A stretch of DNA of 64,000 nt, taken from positions 42,474 through 106,473 of the forward strand of contig CAYJDM010000001.1 in the NCBI GenBank assembly GCA_964368945.1. The letters are read 5' to 3'. The notes beneath the pieces are model-generated. The model did not search any database. It saw only the letters and a program-made list of their open reading frames with translations, and had not been told where the DNA came from. This document shows positions 3,402 to 61,582 of the stretch, piece after piece. The stretch is from an uncultured Candidatus Saccharibacteria bacterium. Lineage in GTDB: Bacteria > Patescibacteriota > Minisyncoccia > Phycocordibacterales > CAIZLB01. Both the position numbers and the translations under genes were made by a program. Each line of letters begins with the position of its first letter. Position 1 is the stretch's first letter.

Positions 3402-6400
3402 ATGCATATTATGCCAAGCCTCAAAGAGTACGTTCTTACCCTAAAAAAATACAATCCGAAGACAGAGGATCGGCTGCTCAAAATCTATCTCCTCAAAGCG
3501 GGCTGGCCTATTTCTGATATAGAAACGGCCTTTGCTGAATACAATGCCGGCCATACATCAGGAGCGCCCATGCCTTCTCAGGCTGCGTCTGTTGCAGTGC
3601 CTGCGCCGGTTGTCTCCGCAATTCCCGCAGCTACCGCGTCAAAAATACCGACTTCAACTGCTATAGAAGTTGCCGCTCCTGAAATCGAGCCTGCGCATAT
3701 AGCAAAACCGATGCAACCGACTCCGACTCCGACTCCGACTCCGCCTTCGGCTTCTTCTTCAAAGCTTCCGCCAATCACTGCCGGTATAAATAGGCAGCCG
3801 TCGCCAGCTTCACCATCTCAAATAGAAATCGCGCCGCGCGAAATTTCTCCCGTGACGAATGCGATTCCTGTCGTCGGTACGAGCGCTTCGATTCCTGCCG
3901 GTATTCCGACAACGATAGCGCCTGTCACAACGGCTGTGGACATAGAAGTCCAGAGCAATGAGCCGATGGGCGGATTTTTATCTCCTTTTCCAAATACGCA
4001 AAATGCGCCATTGCCAAAAGAGCCCGAAAACGCGCTTCCTATAATTGATGGCAGCATCGATCGGGATTCATATGGAAAAATAATAGTGCCCGGAGAAAAT
4101 GCGGCGGCGGACAGCGGCATTCTCCTCAAGACTCCTACGGTTGCATCGATCGAGATCCTGACCGCGCTCGCAGATGGCGATGCTGCGAAAGTCCCTGGCG
4201 ATCCCATGTATGTCATGCCGGATATAGAGCGAGATCTCGCAGCTCCGCATGCATCTGATGCTCAGAATGATTTTAAGGAAAAAATCTCAACAGCGCCTTC
4301 CGAACATATTTTGGTATCCACGACGGCGGAAAGAGAGGTGGTGGATCCTGCGAATATGGCAGGCACTGTCATCGATCAAGCTCGAAGGCAATTTGCCAGC
4401 GAGGATATGGCGGCCAATCAAAGCGCTGTCATGCCAGCTGTCGCAGGTTCTCCGTCTGCATCCGGAGCGCGGTCGGCAATGATGGCCTCTGATTCGCATT
4501 CGGCATTTGCCGGCGGCGGCCTTGCATCAAATCAATTCACATCATCTGCCGATGTTCTCAATGGCATGTCTGCTGCGGTGCCCGCATCGACCGCGCCCGC
4601 CGGAATGGATGGTGCTGGATTGGCAAGCGGCCCCATGATGGCCGATGCATCCATAATCGCGCAGGATCCCGGACCTCAGCCAATCGTTGCTCCTATAAAA
4701 AAGAAAAAAAGCCATTTGAAATTATTCCTCTGGCTCGCCCTCATTCTCGTCCTGGGCGCTTTGGGATATGGATATACGCGATTCGTCCATGGCGTATATC
4801 TTTTCGTGAACCCGCCGGTTGGCCGCGAAGAGGTTTTGACATATATGACGAATTCGGCCGCCGCGCTTGAGACGGCTGAATATACGACGCAATTCCATAT
4901 GAGGGTTGCGCCGCGAGAACCGGGATCCGAAAGCATTGATTTGAATTCGATCGGCCTTGATCCGACCCTTCTTGCGGGAGGCATTTCTACCATAAAGGGT
5001 TCTTCGACTGCGCCGTTGACCGCTACGACTGCCGTGGCCACGGACGAGTCTGCAGACGCCGGATCTGCCACGGATACAGAGGATTTCCTTGCGGCATTTC
5101 CGGCAGATGCAAATATCGATGTGACGGTTAAGAGTTTTTATCAAAAGAATCGCGATGCGAGCGGCAATGCTGAGATTAAGAGCGATAATGCATTCCATCA
5201 TCAGGGAACATATTCGGGCGAAGGCGTGACAGCGAAGTTCGATGTCGAATCCGTAATCAAGGGCGGCGTCACTTATGTCAAAGCGAATGAATTCCCGCAG
5301 ATGCTGCTGGATATAGAGCCGGTAAAGGGCAAATGGATTTCGATTCAGAAGAGCGATGAAGATCTGCTCAAGAATGTTTTTCCATGGCTTTCGCTTTTCT
5401 CTCCGCTTCCTTCCGTCATGCCTTCTGCTAATGCTTCTGCTTCCACGACCAATGCCTCAGGCACGCCGATCATGGCCGCAAGCATGGGCTCTCTCGGCGG
5501 CGTGACGAATCTGACCAAGGGCTTCATATCGCCTCGACCGGCAAATGCCGATAAGCAGATCGCCCGGCTCATTTCCATAGCGGATGATGAAAAAGTCCTG
5601 CAGGTCATCGGCGATCCTATAAAGAATATTCAATCTGGCTCTGCTTGGTATATGCCGAAGCGCGTGACATATGTATATAAGGTCAAGCCGGATCTGGCGC
5701 AGTTCCTTGTTTTCATCGATCGCGCGAATACTATCCTGCAGAATGAATTCGGCACTTCGTCGATCATGGCTCTGACAGATGCCCAGAAAGCCGAGATCAA
5801 TGGCCCTGCTTTTGCCAAATTCTTCGAATATATGACGAATAATGGCCGCTTTGCCATCGAGGTCGACAAGTATAAGGCATTGGTCGGTTTTGAGATCAGC
5901 ATCAATGTCGTCTCCGAAACGAAGAGGACAGAGATCGGCGCGCGAATTTCTTTGGATAAAATAAATGACCGCATCTCTATCGAAGCTCCGAAAGCCGATC
6001 TTGATTTCTCTGATGCGTATACGCAGATGACTGGCCAGACGAGGGAGGTGATGGTGCTCAGGAATACCGCGCATGTCGTCGAGGCGATCAGATCCGCTCT
6101 CGCTGAATATCAGGCCGCGCATGAAGGGGCATTGCCAGATGATCTGATGGCTCTGCTCGCTGATCCTGCGGGCATCAAGGCCTTTGCTGCCGAGCCTGGC
6201 CTGGATGATAAGAATCTGCTTTCCTTGTATCAGTATAAAAAAATGCCGGCCACTGGAAATGGCAGCGGAAGCAAACAGGGATATCAGCTCGTCTACCAAA
6301 TCGCTCTTCCCAAAGTGCCAGAGCAATTCTATGAACTGCATCAGAACCTGATCGGATATGATTCTGCCAGCGCGATCTCTGCGGGCAGCGAGCGAAGCCT

Positions 6401-6641
6401 GCAGTATCTGAAATTCGTCAATGGAAAAAATACCGCAACCGAAAAAGTCTTGTCAGTCGAAGCAGAGGCGACGAAGCGATTGGATAGCGATAAGGATTTG
6501 ATCACCAATGGCCTCGAGCAATATATCGGGACGAATATTACCAAAAAAGATACGGATGACGATACGGTGGGCGATTATGATGAATTGCAGAAGGGTGGTA
6601 ATCCTAATGGTCCTGGTTCATGGGCAGTATTCCAAAAATAA
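3402..6641 (+). CDS. Large hypothetical membrane-anchored protein (1079 aa). It has a small N-terminal domain, a P/T/A/S-rich low-complexity region that includes TPTPTPTP, a single TM helix near aa 430-455, and a C-terminal region of about 620 aa.
   Basis: Uninterrupted 3.2-kb ORF. A KKKKSHLKLFLWLALILVLGALGYGY transmembrane segment is present. No recognisable catalytic motif. An alternative leaderless start at ATG 3411 lies 11 nt downstream of TATAAT. Confidence 0.6.
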   Translation: MHIMPSLKEYVLTLKKYNPKTEDRLLKIYLLKAGWPISDIETAFAEYNAGHTSGAPMPSQAASVAVPAPVVSAIPAATASKIPTSTAIEVAAPEIEPAHIAKPMQPTPTPTPTPPSASSSKLPPITAGINRQPSPASPSQIEIAPREISPVTNAIPVVGTSASIPAGIPTTIAPVTTAVDIEVQSNEPMGGFLSPFPNTQNAPLPKEPENALPIIDGSIDRDSYGKIIVPGENAAADSGILLKTPTVASIEILTALADGDAAKVPGDPMYVMPDIERDLAAPHASDAQNDFKEKISTAPSEHILVSTTAEREVVDPANMAGTVIDQARRQFASEDMAANQSAVMPAVAGSPSASGARSAMMASDSHSAFAGGGLASNQFTSSADVLNGMSAAVPASTAPAGMDGAGLASGPMMADASIIAQDPGPQPIVAPIKKKKSHLKLFLWLALILVLGALGYGYTRFVHGVYLFVNPPVGREEVLTYMTNSAAALETAEYTTQFHMRVAPREPGSESIDLNSIGLDPTLLAGGISTIKGSSTAPLTATTAVATDESADAGSATDTEDFLAAFPADANIDVTVKSFYQKNRDASGNAEIKSDNAFHHQGTYSGEGVTAKFDVESVIKGGVTYVKANEFPQMLLDIEPVKGKWISIQKSDEDLLKNVFPWLSLFSPLPSVMPSANASASTTNASGTPIMAASMGSLGGVTNLTKGFISPRPANADKQIARLISIADDEKVLQVIGDPIKNIQSGSAWYMPKRVTYVYKVKPDLAQFLVFIDRANTILQNEFGTSSIMALTDAQKAEINGPAFAKFFEYMTNNGRFAIEVDKYKALVGFEISINVVSETKRTEIGARISLDKINDRISIEAPKADLDFSDAYTQMTGQTREVMVLRNTAHVVEAIRSALAEYQAAHEGALPDDLMALLADPAGIKAFAAEPGLDDKNLLSLYQYKKMPATGNGSGSKQGYQLVYQIALPKVPEQFYELHQNLIGYDSASAISAGSERSLQYLKFVNGKNTATEKVLSVEAEATKRLDSDKDLITNGLEQYIGTNITKKDTDDDTVGDYDELQKGGNPNGPGSWAVFQK
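3715..3743 (+). repeat. Short tandem repeat (ccgact)x4 encoding (TP)n within the 1079-aa gene
   Basis: ccgactccgactccgactccgact visible in the sequence. The repeat is in-frame and a candidate for slipped-strand length variation. Confidence 0.5.
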
Positions 6642-7054: not shown

Positions 7055-7097
7055 GCGCGCTTTCGATTATATGCGCCGGAGAATATGTTATGCGAAA

Positions 7098-7127
7098 AGC
7101 CGTCCACCCCTGGACGGCTTTTTTCCT
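7098..7127 (+). terminator. rho-independent terminator (gccgtcca cccc tggacggc followed by ttttttcc)
   Basis: Perfect 8-bp stem followed by a T-tract. Confidence 0.5.
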
Positions 7128-7168
7128 TAGGGAAATGAGGTTTTCCACAACTTTCTTTGCATATATTC

Positions 7169-7197
7169 TTGACGGTGAACCATGGTTCACTTATACT
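7169..7197 (+). promoter_or_regulatory. Sigma70-like promoter TTGACG-17-TATACT. A perfect 16-bp palindrome GTGAACCATGGTTCAC fills the spacer and acts as a Cheo-type LexA/SOS box (GAAC-N4-GTTC).
   Basis: -35 at 7169-7174, palindrome at 7175-7190 and -10 at 7192-7197 are seen directly. GAAC-N4-GTTC is the established Gram-positive-type LexA operator core. lexA lies 350 nt downstream on the same strand. Confidence 0.6.
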
Positions 7198-7249
7198 ACA
7201 AACATACAAATTTAGTATAAGTAACGCCGAAAGGCACCACAAAGAAAAT

Positions 7250-7447
7250 ATGTCAAAAATCAACCTTATGTACATGATTAATAAAGAGATCAAATTCCTT
7301 AATAGCAAGATCGACCGCAAGATCGTACGAGGCATCTCATATGAGCGAGAGGCACGAAAGCATCGGGAATTGGTCCACAAGCTTCGCAAATTGGAGAGCG
7401 AGGCATCTATGGCTCGAACATTCTCATTCGCACATTTCCTATTCTAA
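7250..7447 (+). CDS. Small basic hypothetical protein (65 aa) downstream of the SOS-box promoter and upstream of lexA
   Basis: ORF MSKINLMYMINKEIKFLNSKIDRKIVRGISYEREARKHRELVHKLRKLESEASMARTFSFAHFLF in an AT-rich segment. Weak call. Confidence 0.3.
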   Translation: MSKINLMYMINKEIKFLNSKIDRKIVRGISYEREARKHRELVHKLRKLESEASMARTFSFAHFLF

Positions 7448-7544
7448 TTCGGAATAATCCGTTGACTCGGAACCGGCTGGCCTGGCAGTCCTGACATACG
7501 AGCCTGGCGAGTCAGATACAGTGATATACTAAAACCACAAACAA

Positions 7545-8138
7545 GTGAACAATTCATTCGAGGAATATAAACATAAGATCTCAGACTTTTGCCGATCCAA
7601 TCGGCGCGTGCCTGGGTATCAGGAAATTCAGCATCTTACAGGATTCAAATCCAAGAATGCCGTTTTCAAATTGATCGGCAAATTGGTTGATGATGGTCTT
7701 TTTGAAAAAGACAGCCGCGGGAAGCTTTCGATGAAGGCTTTGTTCGGCGAGGTGCCCATGCTTGGTGTCGTAGAGGCGGGTATTCCGACTGCTGCTGAAG
7801 CCAAGACTGATTTCTTGGACAGCACGAGCGTTGAAGAATTCCTGCTCGGCGATATGAAGGGCGATACATTCATGCTGGAAGTAAAAGGGGAGTCGATGAT
7901 CGATGCGCATATCGCGGAAGGCGATCTCGTTCTGGTCGAGCGCAATGAAAATCCAAAGATCGGCGATATCGTCGTCGCTCTCGTTGATGGAGGCTGGACG
8001 CTCAAATATTATCGCAAGGATAAAAATGGCCAGGTCTATCTGCAGCCTGCGAACGAAGCATTCAGCGATATTTATCCTGAATATGAAATGCAGATCGCGG
8101 CTGTCGTGCGCGCTGTCATCCGCAAGTTTAAAAAATAG
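7545..8138 (+). CDS. lexA: LexA repressor (S24 peptidase). GTG start, with a TGaTATACT extended -10 box 14 nt upstream.
   Basis: N-terminal winged HTH (GYQEIQHLTGFKSKNAVFKLIGKLVDDG), an Ala-Gly cleavage site (VEAGIP), the Ser nucleophile in GESM and a Lys in the TLKYY context. Confidence 0.9.
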   Translation: MNNSFEEYKHKISDFCRSNRRVPGYQEIQHLTGFKSKNAVFKLIGKLVDDGLFEKDSRGKLSMKALFGEVPMLGVVEAGIPTAAEAKTDFLDSTSVEEFLLGDMKGDTFMLEVKGESMIDAHIAEGDLVLVERNENPKIGDIVVALVDGGWTLKYYRKDKNGQVYLQPANEAFSDIYPEYEMQIAAVVRAVIRKFKK

Positions 8139-8178
8139 CACCATCTACGCAGCAAAATTCACTCTTTTAAAAAACTAA

Positions 8179-8210
8179 CCCCTCCACCTATAATGTCGGT
8201 GGAGGGGTTT
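8179..8210. terminator. bidirectional terminator hairpin (cccctccacc ... ggtggagggg)
   Basis: 10-bp perfect stem flanked by T-rich sequence on both strands, between convergent genes. Confidence 0.5.
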
Positions 8211-8234
8211 GCGTATTGGTGGCTCAGGGACATC

Positions 8235-8537: not shown

Positions 8538-9041
8538 ATGACAATCGCTAAAACCTCGAAAACCCCAAAAGGCGAGAAAAACTACTGGCTCCTCAAATCA
8601 GAGCCTGATTGCTATTCGATCGATCAGCTCAAGGCTGATGGCAAGACGCCTTGGTCGGGCATTCGCAATTATCAGGCGCGCAATTTCATGCGGGATGGCA
8701 TGAAGGTCGGGGATCTTTGCCTTTTCTATCATTCGAGCACGGCTTCGTCTGCGGATATGGGAGTGGTAGGCATAGGCAAGGTGGCGTCGAAGGCGTATCC
8801 GGACCCGACTGCTTTTGATAAAAAAAGCGAATACTATGAGCCTAATCCAAAGATCGAATGGGCGAATGTGGATATCGCATTCGTGAAAAAGCTCAAGCGA
8901 ACAGTGACGCTGAAAGAGATGAAGAATGACCCCGCCCTCAAGGGCATGATGCTGGTGCGTCCTGGAATGCGCCTCTCGATACAGCCGGTTTCGGAAAAAG
9001 ATTTCAACCATATTGTGCAAAGCTCATCTGAAATCGTCTAA
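8538..9041 (+). CDS. EVE-domain (PUA-like) protein
   Basis: NYWLLKSEPDCYSI...GIRNYQARNFMRDGMKVGDLCLFYHS pattern typical of EVE domains. Start taken at ATG 8538. Confidence 0.7.
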   Translation: MTIAKTSKTPKGEKNYWLLKSEPDCYSIDQLKADGKTPWSGIRNYQARNFMRDGMKVGDLCLFYHSSTASSADMGVVGIGKVASKAYPDPTAFDKKSEYYEPNPKIEWANVDIAFVKKLKRTVTLKEMKNDPALKGMMLVRPGMRLSIQPVSEKDFNHIVQSSSEIV

Positions 9042-31836: not shown

Positions 31837-33261
31837 TCAGAGGATGGGCTCCGGTTTGTAGCCCGCCGCATCCGGATATTTTGCCGTTACGGCCGCAATC
31901 CGCGACAGTACTTTTTCCACTTGTTCGACGGCCGCGCCATGAACAGGCTCCGAGACCAGCTTCATGATTGTATCGCGTGAGAGAACGAAATCCGCATCAG
32001 TTCCCAGAGAATCGACGAGGGTGTTGGGACCTCCCGCGCGCATGCTTTTGATTGCGGATACTGAATGTCCCTTAATAATCTCGTGTGCCGTTTCTCTGCC
32101 CATTCCTTCCTGAACCGCTGCCATGAGCAGGCGAGTGGAAGACAGGAAGGGAAGCTGCTGTTTCAGCTCTTCTTCGATCATGCCCGGAAAGACGCCGAAT
32201 TCATCGAGAATGGTCAAGGCGGTTTCGAAGAGGCCGTCGAGAGTCATGAATGCGCCTTGAATTGCGACGCGTCGCACCACCGAACAGCTCACATCGCCTT
32301 CGTTCCATTGGCTGCCGACGAGGCTTTGGGCCATAGAGGCGAATCCTTTCAATACGCTGAGCAATGCACAGATCCGTTCGCATGAGCGAGCGTTCATCTT
32401 GTGGGCCATGGCATTCGACCCGACCTGACCTTTTGCAAAGCCTTCGGTGGCCAGCGAATGGCCGGACATGAGACGGATGGTAAGGGCCATATTTGACGGT
32501 CCCGATGCGAGTTGTACCAGATGTGATACCACCTCAGCATCGAGCGACCGCGGATAGACCTGTCCGATGCAGTCGAATGCATGGCTGAATCCCAGATGGT
32601 GCATTATCTTGTCGTCGAGCTCCGCAGCTTTTTCGGGGCCTTGGAGCAAATCCGCCATGTCCTGCTGCGTTCCCAGCGCGCCTTTCATTCCTCTCAACGG
32701 ATATCCGGCAATAAGGACTTCAAACGCATTGAAGGCATGCAGCAATTCTTCAGCCCAGCTTGCGAACCGATGACCGAGTGTCGTCACTTGGCCTGGTACA
32801 TTATGCGTGCGTCCGCAGATGTTGAGCAATTTGAACTCGTCAGCGCGTACCCCCAATCGGTGCAGGACCGTTATGGTTCTGTCACGAATGAGATTGAGCG
32901 CCATGAGGATTTGCAGCTGCTCGGTGTTGTCGGTCAGGTCCCGTGATGTCATTCCCGCGTGGATGAGCTGAAGCCCGGCGAGCTGATTGAAATCGGTAAT
33001 GGCGGCGTTGACGTCATGGCGTGATTTTCTTTCGCGCTCTGCAATAGATGCGAGATCGATATTGTGCATCACGGCTTCGTACGCGGCTATGTCCTCGTCT
33101 TTGATGTCGCGGCCCAAGTCTTTCTGTGCCTTGAGCACCGCGATCCAGAGTTGCCGCTGGAGCAGCTGCTTGTTTTCAGGTGTCCAGATTTGAACCATTG
33201 GGCTTGAAGCATAGCGGTCTGCCAGCACATCGGGTAGTTGGGGTTTGGTGGATTTGTTCAT
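31837..33261 (-). CDS. purB: adenylosuccinate lyase
   Basis: Fumarate-lyase signature GQVGSNAMAHKMN and PurB-like N-terminus. Confidence 0.9.
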   Translation of the reverse strand: MNKSTKPQLPDVLADRYASSPMVQIWTPENKQLLQRQLWIAVLKAQKDLGRDIKDEDIAAYEAVMHNIDLASIAERERKSRHDVNAAITDFNQLAGLQLIHAGMTSRDLTDNTEQLQILMALNLIRDRTITVLHRLGVRADEFKLLNICGRTHNVPGQVTTLGHRFASWAEELLHAFNAFEVLIAGYPLRGMKGALGTQQDMADLLQGPEKAAELDDKIMHHLGFSHAFDCIGQVYPRSLDAEVVSHLVQLASGPSNMALTIRLMSGHSLATEGFAKGQVGSNAMAHKMNARSCERICALLSVLKGFASMAQSLVGSQWNEGDVSCSVVRRVAIQGAFMTLDGLFETALTILDEFGVFPGMIEEELKQQLPFLSSTRLLMAAVQEGMGRETAHEIIKGHSVSAIKSMRAGGPNTLVDSLGTDADFVLSRDTIMKLVSEPVHGAAVEQVEKVLSRIAAVTAKYPDAAGYKPEPIL

Positions 33262-60259: not shown

Positions 60260-61582
60260 ATGAACATCCTCATAACAGGATCCGGAGGACGAGAGCATGC
60301 GCTGGCTTGGAAAATAAGACAGAATAAGGCGGTCGATAAAATCTTCATGGCACCCGGCAATGCGGGCACGGCTTTAATCGCGACGAATGTATCAGTCTCG
60401 ACAACCGATGAGATTATTGAATGGGCAAAAGGAAAAAACGCCGTAAGCGCCGCAAGTGTCGATGCTGCTGAGCGGATCGACCTCGTGATCATCGGGCCCG
60501 ATGATCATCTCGCAGAAGGCCTCGTGGATCGTCTGACCGAACTCGGCATTCCGACATTTGGTCCGACCAAGGCCGCTGCGCAGATAGAGTGGTCGAAGGC
60601 ATTCGCAAAGCAATTCATGAAAGAGGAAGGCATTCCCACTGCGGCATATGAAATTTTTATCAATATAGAAAAAGCCAAAGAGCATATTGCTCAGATTCCG
60701 CGAGATGCATTCCCGATCGTAATCAAGGCAAGCGGATTGGCTCTGGGCAAAGGCGTGATAATTCCGCGCAATCCTGAGGAGGCAGTCTGTGCTCTGGATG
60801 ACCTCATGGGGAGCAAGGTATTTGGCGAGGCGGGCAGCGAAGTCGTGATCGAGGAATTCATGCAAGGCCGCGAGATATCAGTGCATGCATTCTGCGATGG
60901 AGAAACGGCAATCGTTCTGCCAGCCGCACAGGATCATAAGAGGATTTTTGAAAACGATATGGGCCCTAATACCGGAGGGATGGGAACGATCGCCCCGGTT
61001 CCATGGGTCACCGATGAAATGCTGCGAGAGATACAAGAGAAAATCGTCATGCCGACATTGGTCGCGATGAAGCGCCGTGGAATGCCTTTCAAGGGAATTC
61101 TTTTTCCTGGGATAATGTTCACCGATTCTGGTCCGAAGGTTATTGAATTCAATGCGCGTTTCGGGGATCCTGAGACTCAGACATTCATGCGATTGATGGA
61201 AAGCGATCTGGTCGATATCGCATTCGCTAGCATCAATGGCACATTGAATGAAAAAAAGATCAGATTCTATACGCAATCGGCATGCTGCATTGTCTGCGCA
61301 TCCGGCGGATATCCTGGCTCATATGAAAAAGGAAAGGTGATCGCAGGACCAGGCTTGCTCGATATGGTCGCCGAAAATAATGATGAGGTTTTTGTTTTTC
61401 ACGCCGCAATGAAAAAGAATGATGCTGGGGTTTTTGTTACGAATGGAGGAAGGGTGCTCAATGTCACCGCGACCGGAACTGATCTGCGGGAAGCCCTTGC
61501 GAAGTCGTATGCAGCGATCGATGAGATTTCATTTGAAGGAATGCAATATAGGAAGGATATTGGGAAAAAGTCTTTGAGTTGA
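60260..61582 (+). CDS. purD: phosphoribosylamine--glycine ligase
   Basis: MNILITGSGGREHALAWKI and an ATP-grasp architecture. TATAAT lies 7 nt upstream of the ATG. Confidence 0.9.
   Translation: MNILITGSGGREHALAWKIRQNKAVDKIFMAPGNAGTALIATNVSVSTTDEIIEWAKGKNAVSAASVDAAERIDLVIIGPDDHLAEGLVDRLTELGIPTFGPTKAAAQIEWSKAFAKQFMKEEGIPTAAYEIFINIEKAKEHIAQIPRDAFPIVIKASGLALGKGVIIPRNPEEAVCALDDLMGSKVFGEAGSEVVIEEFMQGREISVHAFCDGETAIVLPAAQDHKRIFENDMGPNTGGMGTIAPVPWVTDEMLREIQEKIVMPTLVAMKRRGMPFKGILFPGIMFTDSGPKVIEFNARFGDPETQTFMRLMESDLVDIAFASINGTLNEKKIRFYTQSACCIVCASGGYPGSYEKGKVIAGPGLLDMVAENNDEVFVFHAAMKKNDAGVFVTNGGRVLNVTATGTDLREALAKSYAAIDEISFEGMQYRKDIGKKSLS

Follow-up and report, generated by a model that had tools for sequence, protein, structure and literature searches.

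A predicted autoregulated SOS operon of the Paceibacteria pairs lexA with a conserved small basic protein

What does a small, strongly basic protein do directly in front of a LexA gene? The question is raised by a 64,000-nucleotide stretch of contig CAYJDM010000001.1, called the window throughout, in which an open reading frame (ORF) encoding 65 amino acids lies between a promoter with a palindromic spacer and lexA. A preliminary description of this DNA took the palindrome for a LexA operator, the two genes for an SOS operon and the small ORF for a candidate division inhibitor or toxin. The explanation reached here, to which we give a probability of roughly 0.7, is that positions 7141-8212 form an autoregulated SOS operon of the Paceibacteria (Patescibacteria, or Candidate Phyla Radiation, CPR) with the small protein as a checkpoint effector. 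Comparison of related sequences establishes the promoter, the operator, the operon architecture, the linkage to lexA and the selection on the small ORF; binding by LexA and by DnaA is inferred from the sites.

Promoter, operator and operon

LexA-family loci for the comparison were fetched by a genome scan. A single LexA protein used as the query gave no matches, and an alignment used as the query gave 80 loci, 79 of them usable for promoter comparison. Their LexA proteins come from sources named as Patescibacteria, specifically Paceibacterota/Parcubacteria. The DNA sampled in this way is centred on lexA and does not amount to whole genomes; individual loci are given L numbers below. A second, unrelated sample came from one metagenome pattern scan for the operator box, the matches being mostly chance matches from other taxa.

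The larger ORF is LexA, as judged by its alignments. The protein carries the Pfam Peptidase_S24 domain (PF00717, E 5.5e-23) and aligns end to end with the T. maritima LexA structure 3K2Z (residues 12-194, E 1.5e-19) and also with E. coli LexA. None of 28 homologues departs from the cleavage site A78-G79, within the motif VEAG, or from the residues S117 and K154. The homologues also begin at the same codon, which is GTG in L001 and L007 and ATG in L005. Their N-termini coincide with the GTG codon of the window, and the GTG start previously assigned to lexA holds.

Every element of the TTGACG-17-TATACT promoter of the preliminary description can be read in the sequence (Table 1). The hexamers are separated by a spacer of 17 nt, which is filled by a perfect palindrome with its core, GAAC-N4-GTTC, at 7177-7188. 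The likely transcription start is a conserved A at 7204, 7 nt past the -10 hexamer; an A is found there in 66 of 79 loci. In the window by itself the core motif is not significant, since one copy is seen where 0.6 are expected and at least one appeared in 46 of 100 shuffles. The full 16-mer has no second copy in the window even with 2 mismatches, in a scan that was run up to 3.

Among the relatives, about 75 of the 79 loci have GTGAAC-N4-GTTCAC upstream of the lexA unit, flanked by TTGAC as the -35 and TATAcT as the -10. Each of the twelve arm positions carries 1.9-2.0 bits and the central N4 only 0.1-0.5 bits, values that arise partly by construction because up to 2 mismatches were tolerated when the sites were picked. 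The count of perfect 16-mers is independent of this picking. In 574 kb of related loci there are 80, where 0.03 are expected, and all 80 lie at the lexA-operon promoter. On these counts the conservation of the operator among relatives is far beyond chance, and the palindrome is probably what it was first taken for, a LexA operator of the GAAC-N4-GTTC type positioned to occlude RNA polymerase. The flanks of the core are GT...AC in 78-79 of 79 loci. The consensus of the Bacillus LexA box is CGAACRNRYGTTYC, and its C...G is not found here. By this comparison the lineage has its own variant of the Gram-positive LexA box, with the core shared and the flanks changed. In the metagenome sample, a LexA gene, the small ORF or both lie downstream of 29 of 34 promoter-embedded boxes. 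In a high-GC organism of another taxon (L110) the promoter-embedded box precedes a dinB-like gene.

Two further observations concern this promoter type. In an organism with 54% G+C (L106, 9723-9741), GTGAACATTTGTTCAC lies within a promoter in front of a gene that exceeds 588 codons and is possibly an SOS gene of another lineage. In the window an inverted repeat, CTTATACTA (7190-7198) and TAGTATAAG (7213-7221), runs from the -10 into the 5' leader. L001 also has it, L005 and L007 do not, and it may be a product of chance or a minus-strand -10.

Upstream of the -35 lies another conserved element, absent from the preliminary description, a 9-mer that resembles a DnaA box. A 9-mer in the same orientation with at most 1 mismatch is found there in 72 of 79 loci, and TTATCCACA is perfect in 44-46 of them. 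Perfect copies of TTATCCACA number 58 in 556 kb, about 4 being expected overall, and 46 of the 58 stand at the lexA-operon promoter position. From the start of the 9-mer to the LexA box the distance is 16, 24-25 or 34-35 nt. These three classes are about 10 bp, or one helical turn, apart, a spacing which suggests that RNA polymerase is contacted on one face of the helix. The promoter keeps the element both where the small ORF lies upstream and where it does not. In the metagenome sample almost every locus with the small ORF has it, and it is absent from the lexA promoters of LexAs of about 45% identity without the small ORF. The sequence TTATCCACA is the DnaA-box consensus (PMC8203912). Position, orientation and phasing speak for a role of the element, and the chances that DnaA acts at the 9-mer are about even. 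As far as checked, a DnaA-box consensus phased with a lexA promoter is new. Five Zambryskibacteria-like loci also have an inverted TTATCCACA beside a GTCAAT motif, some 270-380 nt in front of rpoB, and these copies caution against taking the sequence as specific to lexA.

The promoter opens a new transcription unit, since a terminator hairpin closes the preceding one. This hairpin has a predicted RNA fold of -19.9 kcal/mol (z = -5.97), and none of 200 shuffles was as good. The terminator-like hairpin behind lexA folds at -36.3 kcal/mol (z = -5.98). Between these limits the two genes are closely linked throughout the relatives. Of 83 distinct loci, 77 keep the small gene in the operon with lexA. 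The genes stand a median of 12 nt apart; 53 of 69 loci have a gap of at most 30 nt, and in 5 the genes overlap. When the look-up was made from the small-protein side, an S24 gene was directly downstream in 7 of 7 cases, with differing flanking genes. The order is swapped in L019, L049, L075 and L079, where the small gene follows lexA by 12-29 nt. In seven loci (L020, L038, L068, L072, L083, L084 and L212) a gene for a Y-family (DinB/IMS) polymerase follows lexA by 2-19 nt, that of L212 matching Pfam IMS, and therefore the operon is tied to classical SOS content. The gaps, the polymerase genes and the boxed promoter bear out the earlier proposal that the small ORF and lexA form one SOS operon. 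A bicistronic operon repressed by LexA is very probably what this architecture represents.

The intercistronic spacer of the window is poorly conserved and measures 33-97 nt in the nearest relatives. The second lexA promoter that had been proposed here, TGaTATACT, is present, but among the nearest relatives a comparable -10 occurs only in L005. It is not a family feature, because the gap of 30 nt or less in most genomes leaves no room for it; an internal promoter could nevertheless operate in the window's own genome. An RNA structure or attenuator in the spacer was considered and rejected (z = -1.05, not conserved).

The small gene and its product

The small ORF is a real gene whose protein is under selection, as judged by a ratio of nonsynonymous to synonymous substitution (dN/dS) of 0.06-0.10 in comparisons with close relatives. 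Searches of increasing depth enlarged the family from a handful of sequences to several hundred. With the single protein as query only six homologues were found, at 70-88% identity. A word-seeded profile search with the family gave 189 protein clusters, and an exhaustive hidden Markov model (HMM) search of 1.84 billion proteins gave 374 representatives at 50% identity. The 150 representatives listed of these 374 are stand-alone proteins of 48-147 residues. Between the boxed promoter and lexA, the LexA loci have an ORF of 62-75 codons with a shared motif and a hydrophobic C-terminus. The motif of the family is E-I/L-x2-L-N-x2-I-D-x-K-I-I/V-x-G-x-S-Y-x2-E-A-R-R-H-K-x-L. At the sequence level the ORF is well borne out as a conserved and translated gene.

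The family is nearly without annotation. Where a source name exists it is almost always "hypothetical protein", and one cluster has an evidently wrong polymerase label. No Pfam domain was found in the 189 clusters. Pfam and PHROGs scans of 69 family members gave nothing recurrent, and NCBIfam gave no match. As far as checked, a class-wide, strongly selected and unannotated family of small proteins tied to lexA in either order is new.

The protein of the window has an isoelectric point (pI) of 10.3 and a net charge of +8; the charge in the family ranges from +3 to +18, with a median of +8. An AlphaFold model built with a 69-sequence alignment is an antiparallel two-helix hairpin, in which helices 3-27 and 32-64 are joined by a G-x-S-Y turn. 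The mean predicted local distance difference test (pLDDT) score is 90.7, with values of 63-75 over the last 15 residues. The invariant residues (E13, N18, I21, D22, I25, Y31 and H38) and the near-invariant ones (K24, G28, E34 and R37) cluster towards the loop end of the hairpin. The sequence closes with a hydrophobic, aromatic C-terminal tail, ...RTFSFAHFLF. Most family members end in F-(L/M/V/I)-(L/F) and have about three aromatics in the last 16 residues. A hydrophobic stretch of transmembrane length, scored as a Kyte-Doolittle 19-residue mean of at least 1.6, was found in none of 137 members, the maximum being 1.44. The model and these values describe an alpha-hairpin that is soluble and basic and exposes a hydrophobic aromatic tail.

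Several likenesses were followed and not sustained. Residues 14-48, with the pattern IDxKIxxGxSYxxEARRHKxL, resemble the C-terminal hairpin of ribosomal protein bS20, a resemblance without statistical support. Homology to bS20 was rejected on an hmmsearch against the PDB (E 0.5-0.9), an hhalign probability of 12.6% and the lack of a Pfam S20p match. The tail was also compared by eye with the beta-clamp-binding motif QLxLF and does not fit it, having no Q or L at positions 1-2. Membership in the Pfam YnzC family (DUF896) was not found.

Proposed role, alternatives and neighbourhood

The following pathway is proposed. A LexA dimer bound to the spacer operator of the sigma-70-type promoter would exclude RNA polymerase. 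When DNA is damaged, RecA would stimulate the self-cleavage of LexA at Ala78-Gly79 by its Ser117/Lys154 dyad, and the promoter would be freed. A single transcript, running from about 7204 to the hairpin at 8177-8212, would then give both the 65-residue protein and new LexA, which would close the regulatory loop. Through the helically phased 9-mer the replication initiator DnaA probably exerts a further control. The small protein may bind a cytoplasmic target in the cell cycle, either the divisome or replication initiation, and so delay the cycle during repair. Its C-terminal tail could serve as a membrane contact, a partner contact or a degradation signal.

The assignment of the small protein as an SOS cell-cycle checkpoint effector is tentative, somewhat short of an even chance, and is made by analogy. 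It is proposed because lineage-specific small genes adjacent to lexA have repeatedly turned out to encode inhibitors of division in the SOS response, and because control by both LexA and DnaA, as it appears here, is apt for a checkpoint of the cell cycle. Such inhibitor genes lie next to lexA in Bacillus, Listeria, Mycobacterium, Corynebacterium and Staphylococcus (PMC6851548), and a division inhibitor belongs to the core SOS regulon of Gram-positive organisms with the GAAC box (PMC7739468). The earlier proposal of a candidate like SulA, YneA or the type I toxins survives in one part, that of a small LexA-controlled neighbour of lexA. The resemblance itself did not survive, since the protein has neither a transmembrane segment nor a LysM domain and matches nothing in Pfam; "division inhibitor or toxin" is inferred from position only. 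The protein belongs to none of the known inhibitor families and would at most work like them.

A number of points weigh against the explanation. LexA scores 99.5 bits with TIGR00498, under the curated cut-off of 110.95 (residues 12-195 against 15-202 of the 203 profile positions), and Pfam LexA_DNA_bind was not detected in it. The small protein matches no Pfam SulA, Sda or DinI model; the inhibitors known from genes beside lexA have a transmembrane segment and a LysM domain, and it has neither. Its fold, a generic hairpin, gave no specific match. The binder of the 9-mer may be a factor other than DnaA. The tight coupling to lexA fits a LexA partner as well as an effector. Finally, the box scan that was meant to define a regulon came back empty: no other gene with the box is present in the window, nor a second operon with it in the 556 kb of related, lexA-centred Paceibacteria DNA. 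Over all loci, boxes with 1 mismatch outside the lexA promoter are no commoner than in shuffled DNA. No DNA-repair genes were found in the 64-kb window. The searches taken together (the window with up to 3 mismatches, the loci with perfect and 1-mismatch boxes, and the metagenome scan) allowed no further SOS gene to be assigned.

The coupling to lexA is the starting point of the alternative that fares best, in which the small protein would be a partner of the SOS switch itself. As a co-repressor or stabiliser of LexA, or as a modulator of the RecA filament, it would tune the threshold or the shut-off of the response. Such partners exist: DdrR acts with UmuDAb and gp7 of phage GIL01 with LexA, and DinI and RecX modulate the RecA filament. 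The short gaps and the overlaps would give translational coupling to lexA, a swapped order does not take the small gene out of the operon, and an S24 gene is its neighbour in all seven look-ups. A polar patch near the hairpin loop (N18, D22, Y31, E34, R37 and H38) looks like an interaction surface. However, no similarity to DinI, RecX or the known partners was found, and six LexA loci have no small gene within 3 kb. The coupling is also no proof of partnership, because Pseudomonas keeps sulA in its lexA operon. On balance a role as switch partner is unlikely.

A basic nucleic-acid binder, which during damage would coat and protect DNA or bind rRNA or the ribosome, would account for a charge of +8 in 65 residues and for the positive charge of the whole family. 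It would also fit the weak likeness to the bS20 C-terminal hairpin (IDxKIxxGxxYxxEARRHK), but the hhalign value is low, no member matches Pfam S20 and the hydrophobic aromatic tail is left unexplained. This alternative is improbable; roles other than checkpoint effector, switch partner or nucleic-acid binder take up the rest of the probability. Still less credible is a TisB- or DinQ-like product, a type I toxin or membrane-depolarising peptide induced in the SOS response. The small size, the LexA control and the hydrophobic, aromatic tail would suit such a peptide, but the product is for the most part a charged hairpin without a transmembrane-length stretch in any of the 137 members, and it is co-translated with an essential regulator and not checked by an antisense RNA. 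Least probable of all is that the palindrome serves another regulator, or that the S24 protein is the repressor of a mobile element, so that the unit is no SOS operon: the TIGR00498 score, the undetected DNA-binding domain and the lack of other boxed genes would fit, but the protein aligns over its full length with LexA structures and has an invariant cleavage site and dyad, the gene lies on the chromosome throughout the class, in varying surroundings that are not those of a phage, with a dinB gene in the operon in 7 loci, and the core motif is that of the Gram-positive LexA box.

For the autoregulated SOS operon with a checkpoint effector, a stronger form can be stated. The SOS response would be cut down to about one promoter, which reads damage through LexA and replication status through DnaA and has a cycle-arresting 65-residue protein as its main output. 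This is possible and must be regarded with some doubt, and it is equally speculative that the arrest would then proceed by a mechanism unrelated to SulA, YneA, SidA and Sda. Patescibacteria are uncultivated episymbionts with tiny genomes and very few regulators. An SOS output that is retained despite genome reduction is likely to be important. A peptide of 65 residues, two short DNA sites and three candidate classes of partner are concrete targets for the study of how damage and replication are coupled to the cell cycle. Sanchez-Osuna, Barbe and Erill are said to have described a Gram-positive-like LexA motif and a small regulon in Patescibacteria in 2017.

The surroundings of the operon add little to this picture. 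The gene for an EVE-domain protein downstream, which had been suggested to belong to the same damage-response neighbourhood, is not in the operon, because the terminator hairpin and a convergent ORF intervene. Apart from a single further locus, the closest relatives alone have it directly behind lexA; it lies within 3 kb of lexA in 12 of 87 loci, and the linkage is limited to near relatives. A DUF1653 gene is found downstream of lexA in two unrelated loci (L209, 3325-3603, and L211, 1730-2128), followed by a gene for a Ham1-like NTP pyrophosphatase in L209 and an MgsA/RarA-type gene in L211; this may be a loose damage-related neighbourhood. Just upstream of the operon, at 3402-6641, the window encodes a low-complexity, Pro/Ala/Ser-rich protein of 1079 residues with a central membrane segment, and L001 and L002 have an 860-residue gene product at the same position. 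The window further encodes a purD gene (60260-61582), an adenylosuccinate-lyase-like gene (31837-33261), three Mur ligases and MurJ. To our knowledge, de novo purine genes are uncommon in Patescibacteria.

Table 1. Coordinates of features in the window and, where an L number is given, in related loci
Feature	Position	Strand	Remarks
Intrinsic terminator of the upstream unit	7094-7124	+	13-bp stem, CCCC loop, T-run
DnaA-box-like 9-mer TTTTCCACA	7141-7149	+	fits TTWTNCACA; 19 nt upstream of the -35; consensus of relatives TTATCCACA
-35 hexamer TTGACG	7169-7174	+	promoter scan 10/12; TTGAC kept in relatives
Predicted LexA operator GTGAAC-CATG-GTTCAC = GTGAACCATGGTTCAC	7175-7190	+	perfect 16-bp palindrome filling the spacer
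-10 hexamer TATACT	7192-7197	+	promoter scan 10/12
Small gene, 65 aa, first cistron	7250-7447	+	ATG start; dN/dS, family, synteny
Intercistronic spacer, 97 nt	7448-7544	+	holds TGaTATACT at 7522-7530; unusually long for the family
lexA, 197 aa	7545-8138	+	GTG start; predicted winged-helix N-terminus, Ala78-Gly79, Ser117/Lys154 dyad
Terminator-like hairpin closing the operon	8177-8209, then TTTG (element to 8212)	+	12-bp G+C-rich stem AACCCCTCCACC/GGTGGAGGGGTT
Convergent hydrophobic ORF, 67 codons	8235-8438	-	between the lexA hairpin and the EVE gene
EVE gene	8538-9041		Pfam EVE 8e-54; own TATAAT-like -10
Permuted small gene (approximate)	L019 3551-3780; L049 3587-3800; L075 3577-3780; L079 3564-3780
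9-mers upstream of rpoB	L015 4446; L017 5758; L024 4256; L026 4676; L041 4248

Comparison with known systems

The autoregulation of LexA through a GAAC-N4-GTTC box is textbook knowledge, and the systems with a Cheo box (CGAAC-N4-GTTCG) are the closest in design. They share the palindromic GAAC-N4-GTTC core, an operator that overlaps the lexA promoter, and a repressor with an Ala-Gly site and a Ser/Lys dyad. The operon of the window differs from them in its GT...AC flanks, in an N4 without preference, in an operator that exactly fills the spacer between -35 and -10 and in having lexA usually as the second cistron. The LexA motif of Patescibacteria is treated by Sanchez-Osuna, Barbe and Erill (Environ Microbiol 2017;19:3465, as cited in PMC8565304). 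A full-text literature search gave no other paper on the subject, and the search did not cover how the 2017 study treats the small gene or the DnaA box.

A small protein coupled to an S24 repressor is also found in the pairs DdrR-UmuDAb of Acinetobacter and gp7-LexA of phage GIL01. There is no homology to either, and an interaction in the present case is only hypothetical. Sda is a very small alpha-hairpin protein, and the likeness to it is one of fold and size. Sda of B. subtilis also resembles the present system in the DnaA boxes of its promoter, DnaA being a regulator of this checkpoint gene, and in its response to replication and damage stress (PMC8203912). It is unlike the small protein in having no Pfam sequence match with it, in being neither LexA-repressed nor part of a lexA operon, and in its target, the sporulation kinases, which are irrelevant here. 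DnaA and LexA boxes occur together in single SOS promoters of E. coli, those of uvrB and recN, which the two proteins co-regulate (Wurihan et al. 2018, as reported in PMC8203912). In contrast to these, the promoter with both sites described here is that of lexA itself, is class-wide, and has the 9-mer in a fixed orientation with a phasing of about 10 bp.

The nearest parallels to the small gene are yneA, chiZ, divS and sosA (PMC6851548) and the sulA of Pseudomonas, each a small, lineage-specific, LexA-controlled gene tied to lexA. The genes for YneA, ChiZ, DivS and SosA are divergent from lexA and encode single-pass membrane proteins with an extracellular C-terminus and mostly a LysM domain (PMC6851548). 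The gene described here is instead co-transcribed with lexA, and its product, predicted to be a soluble basic alpha-hairpin, has no similarity to these proteins or to SulA.

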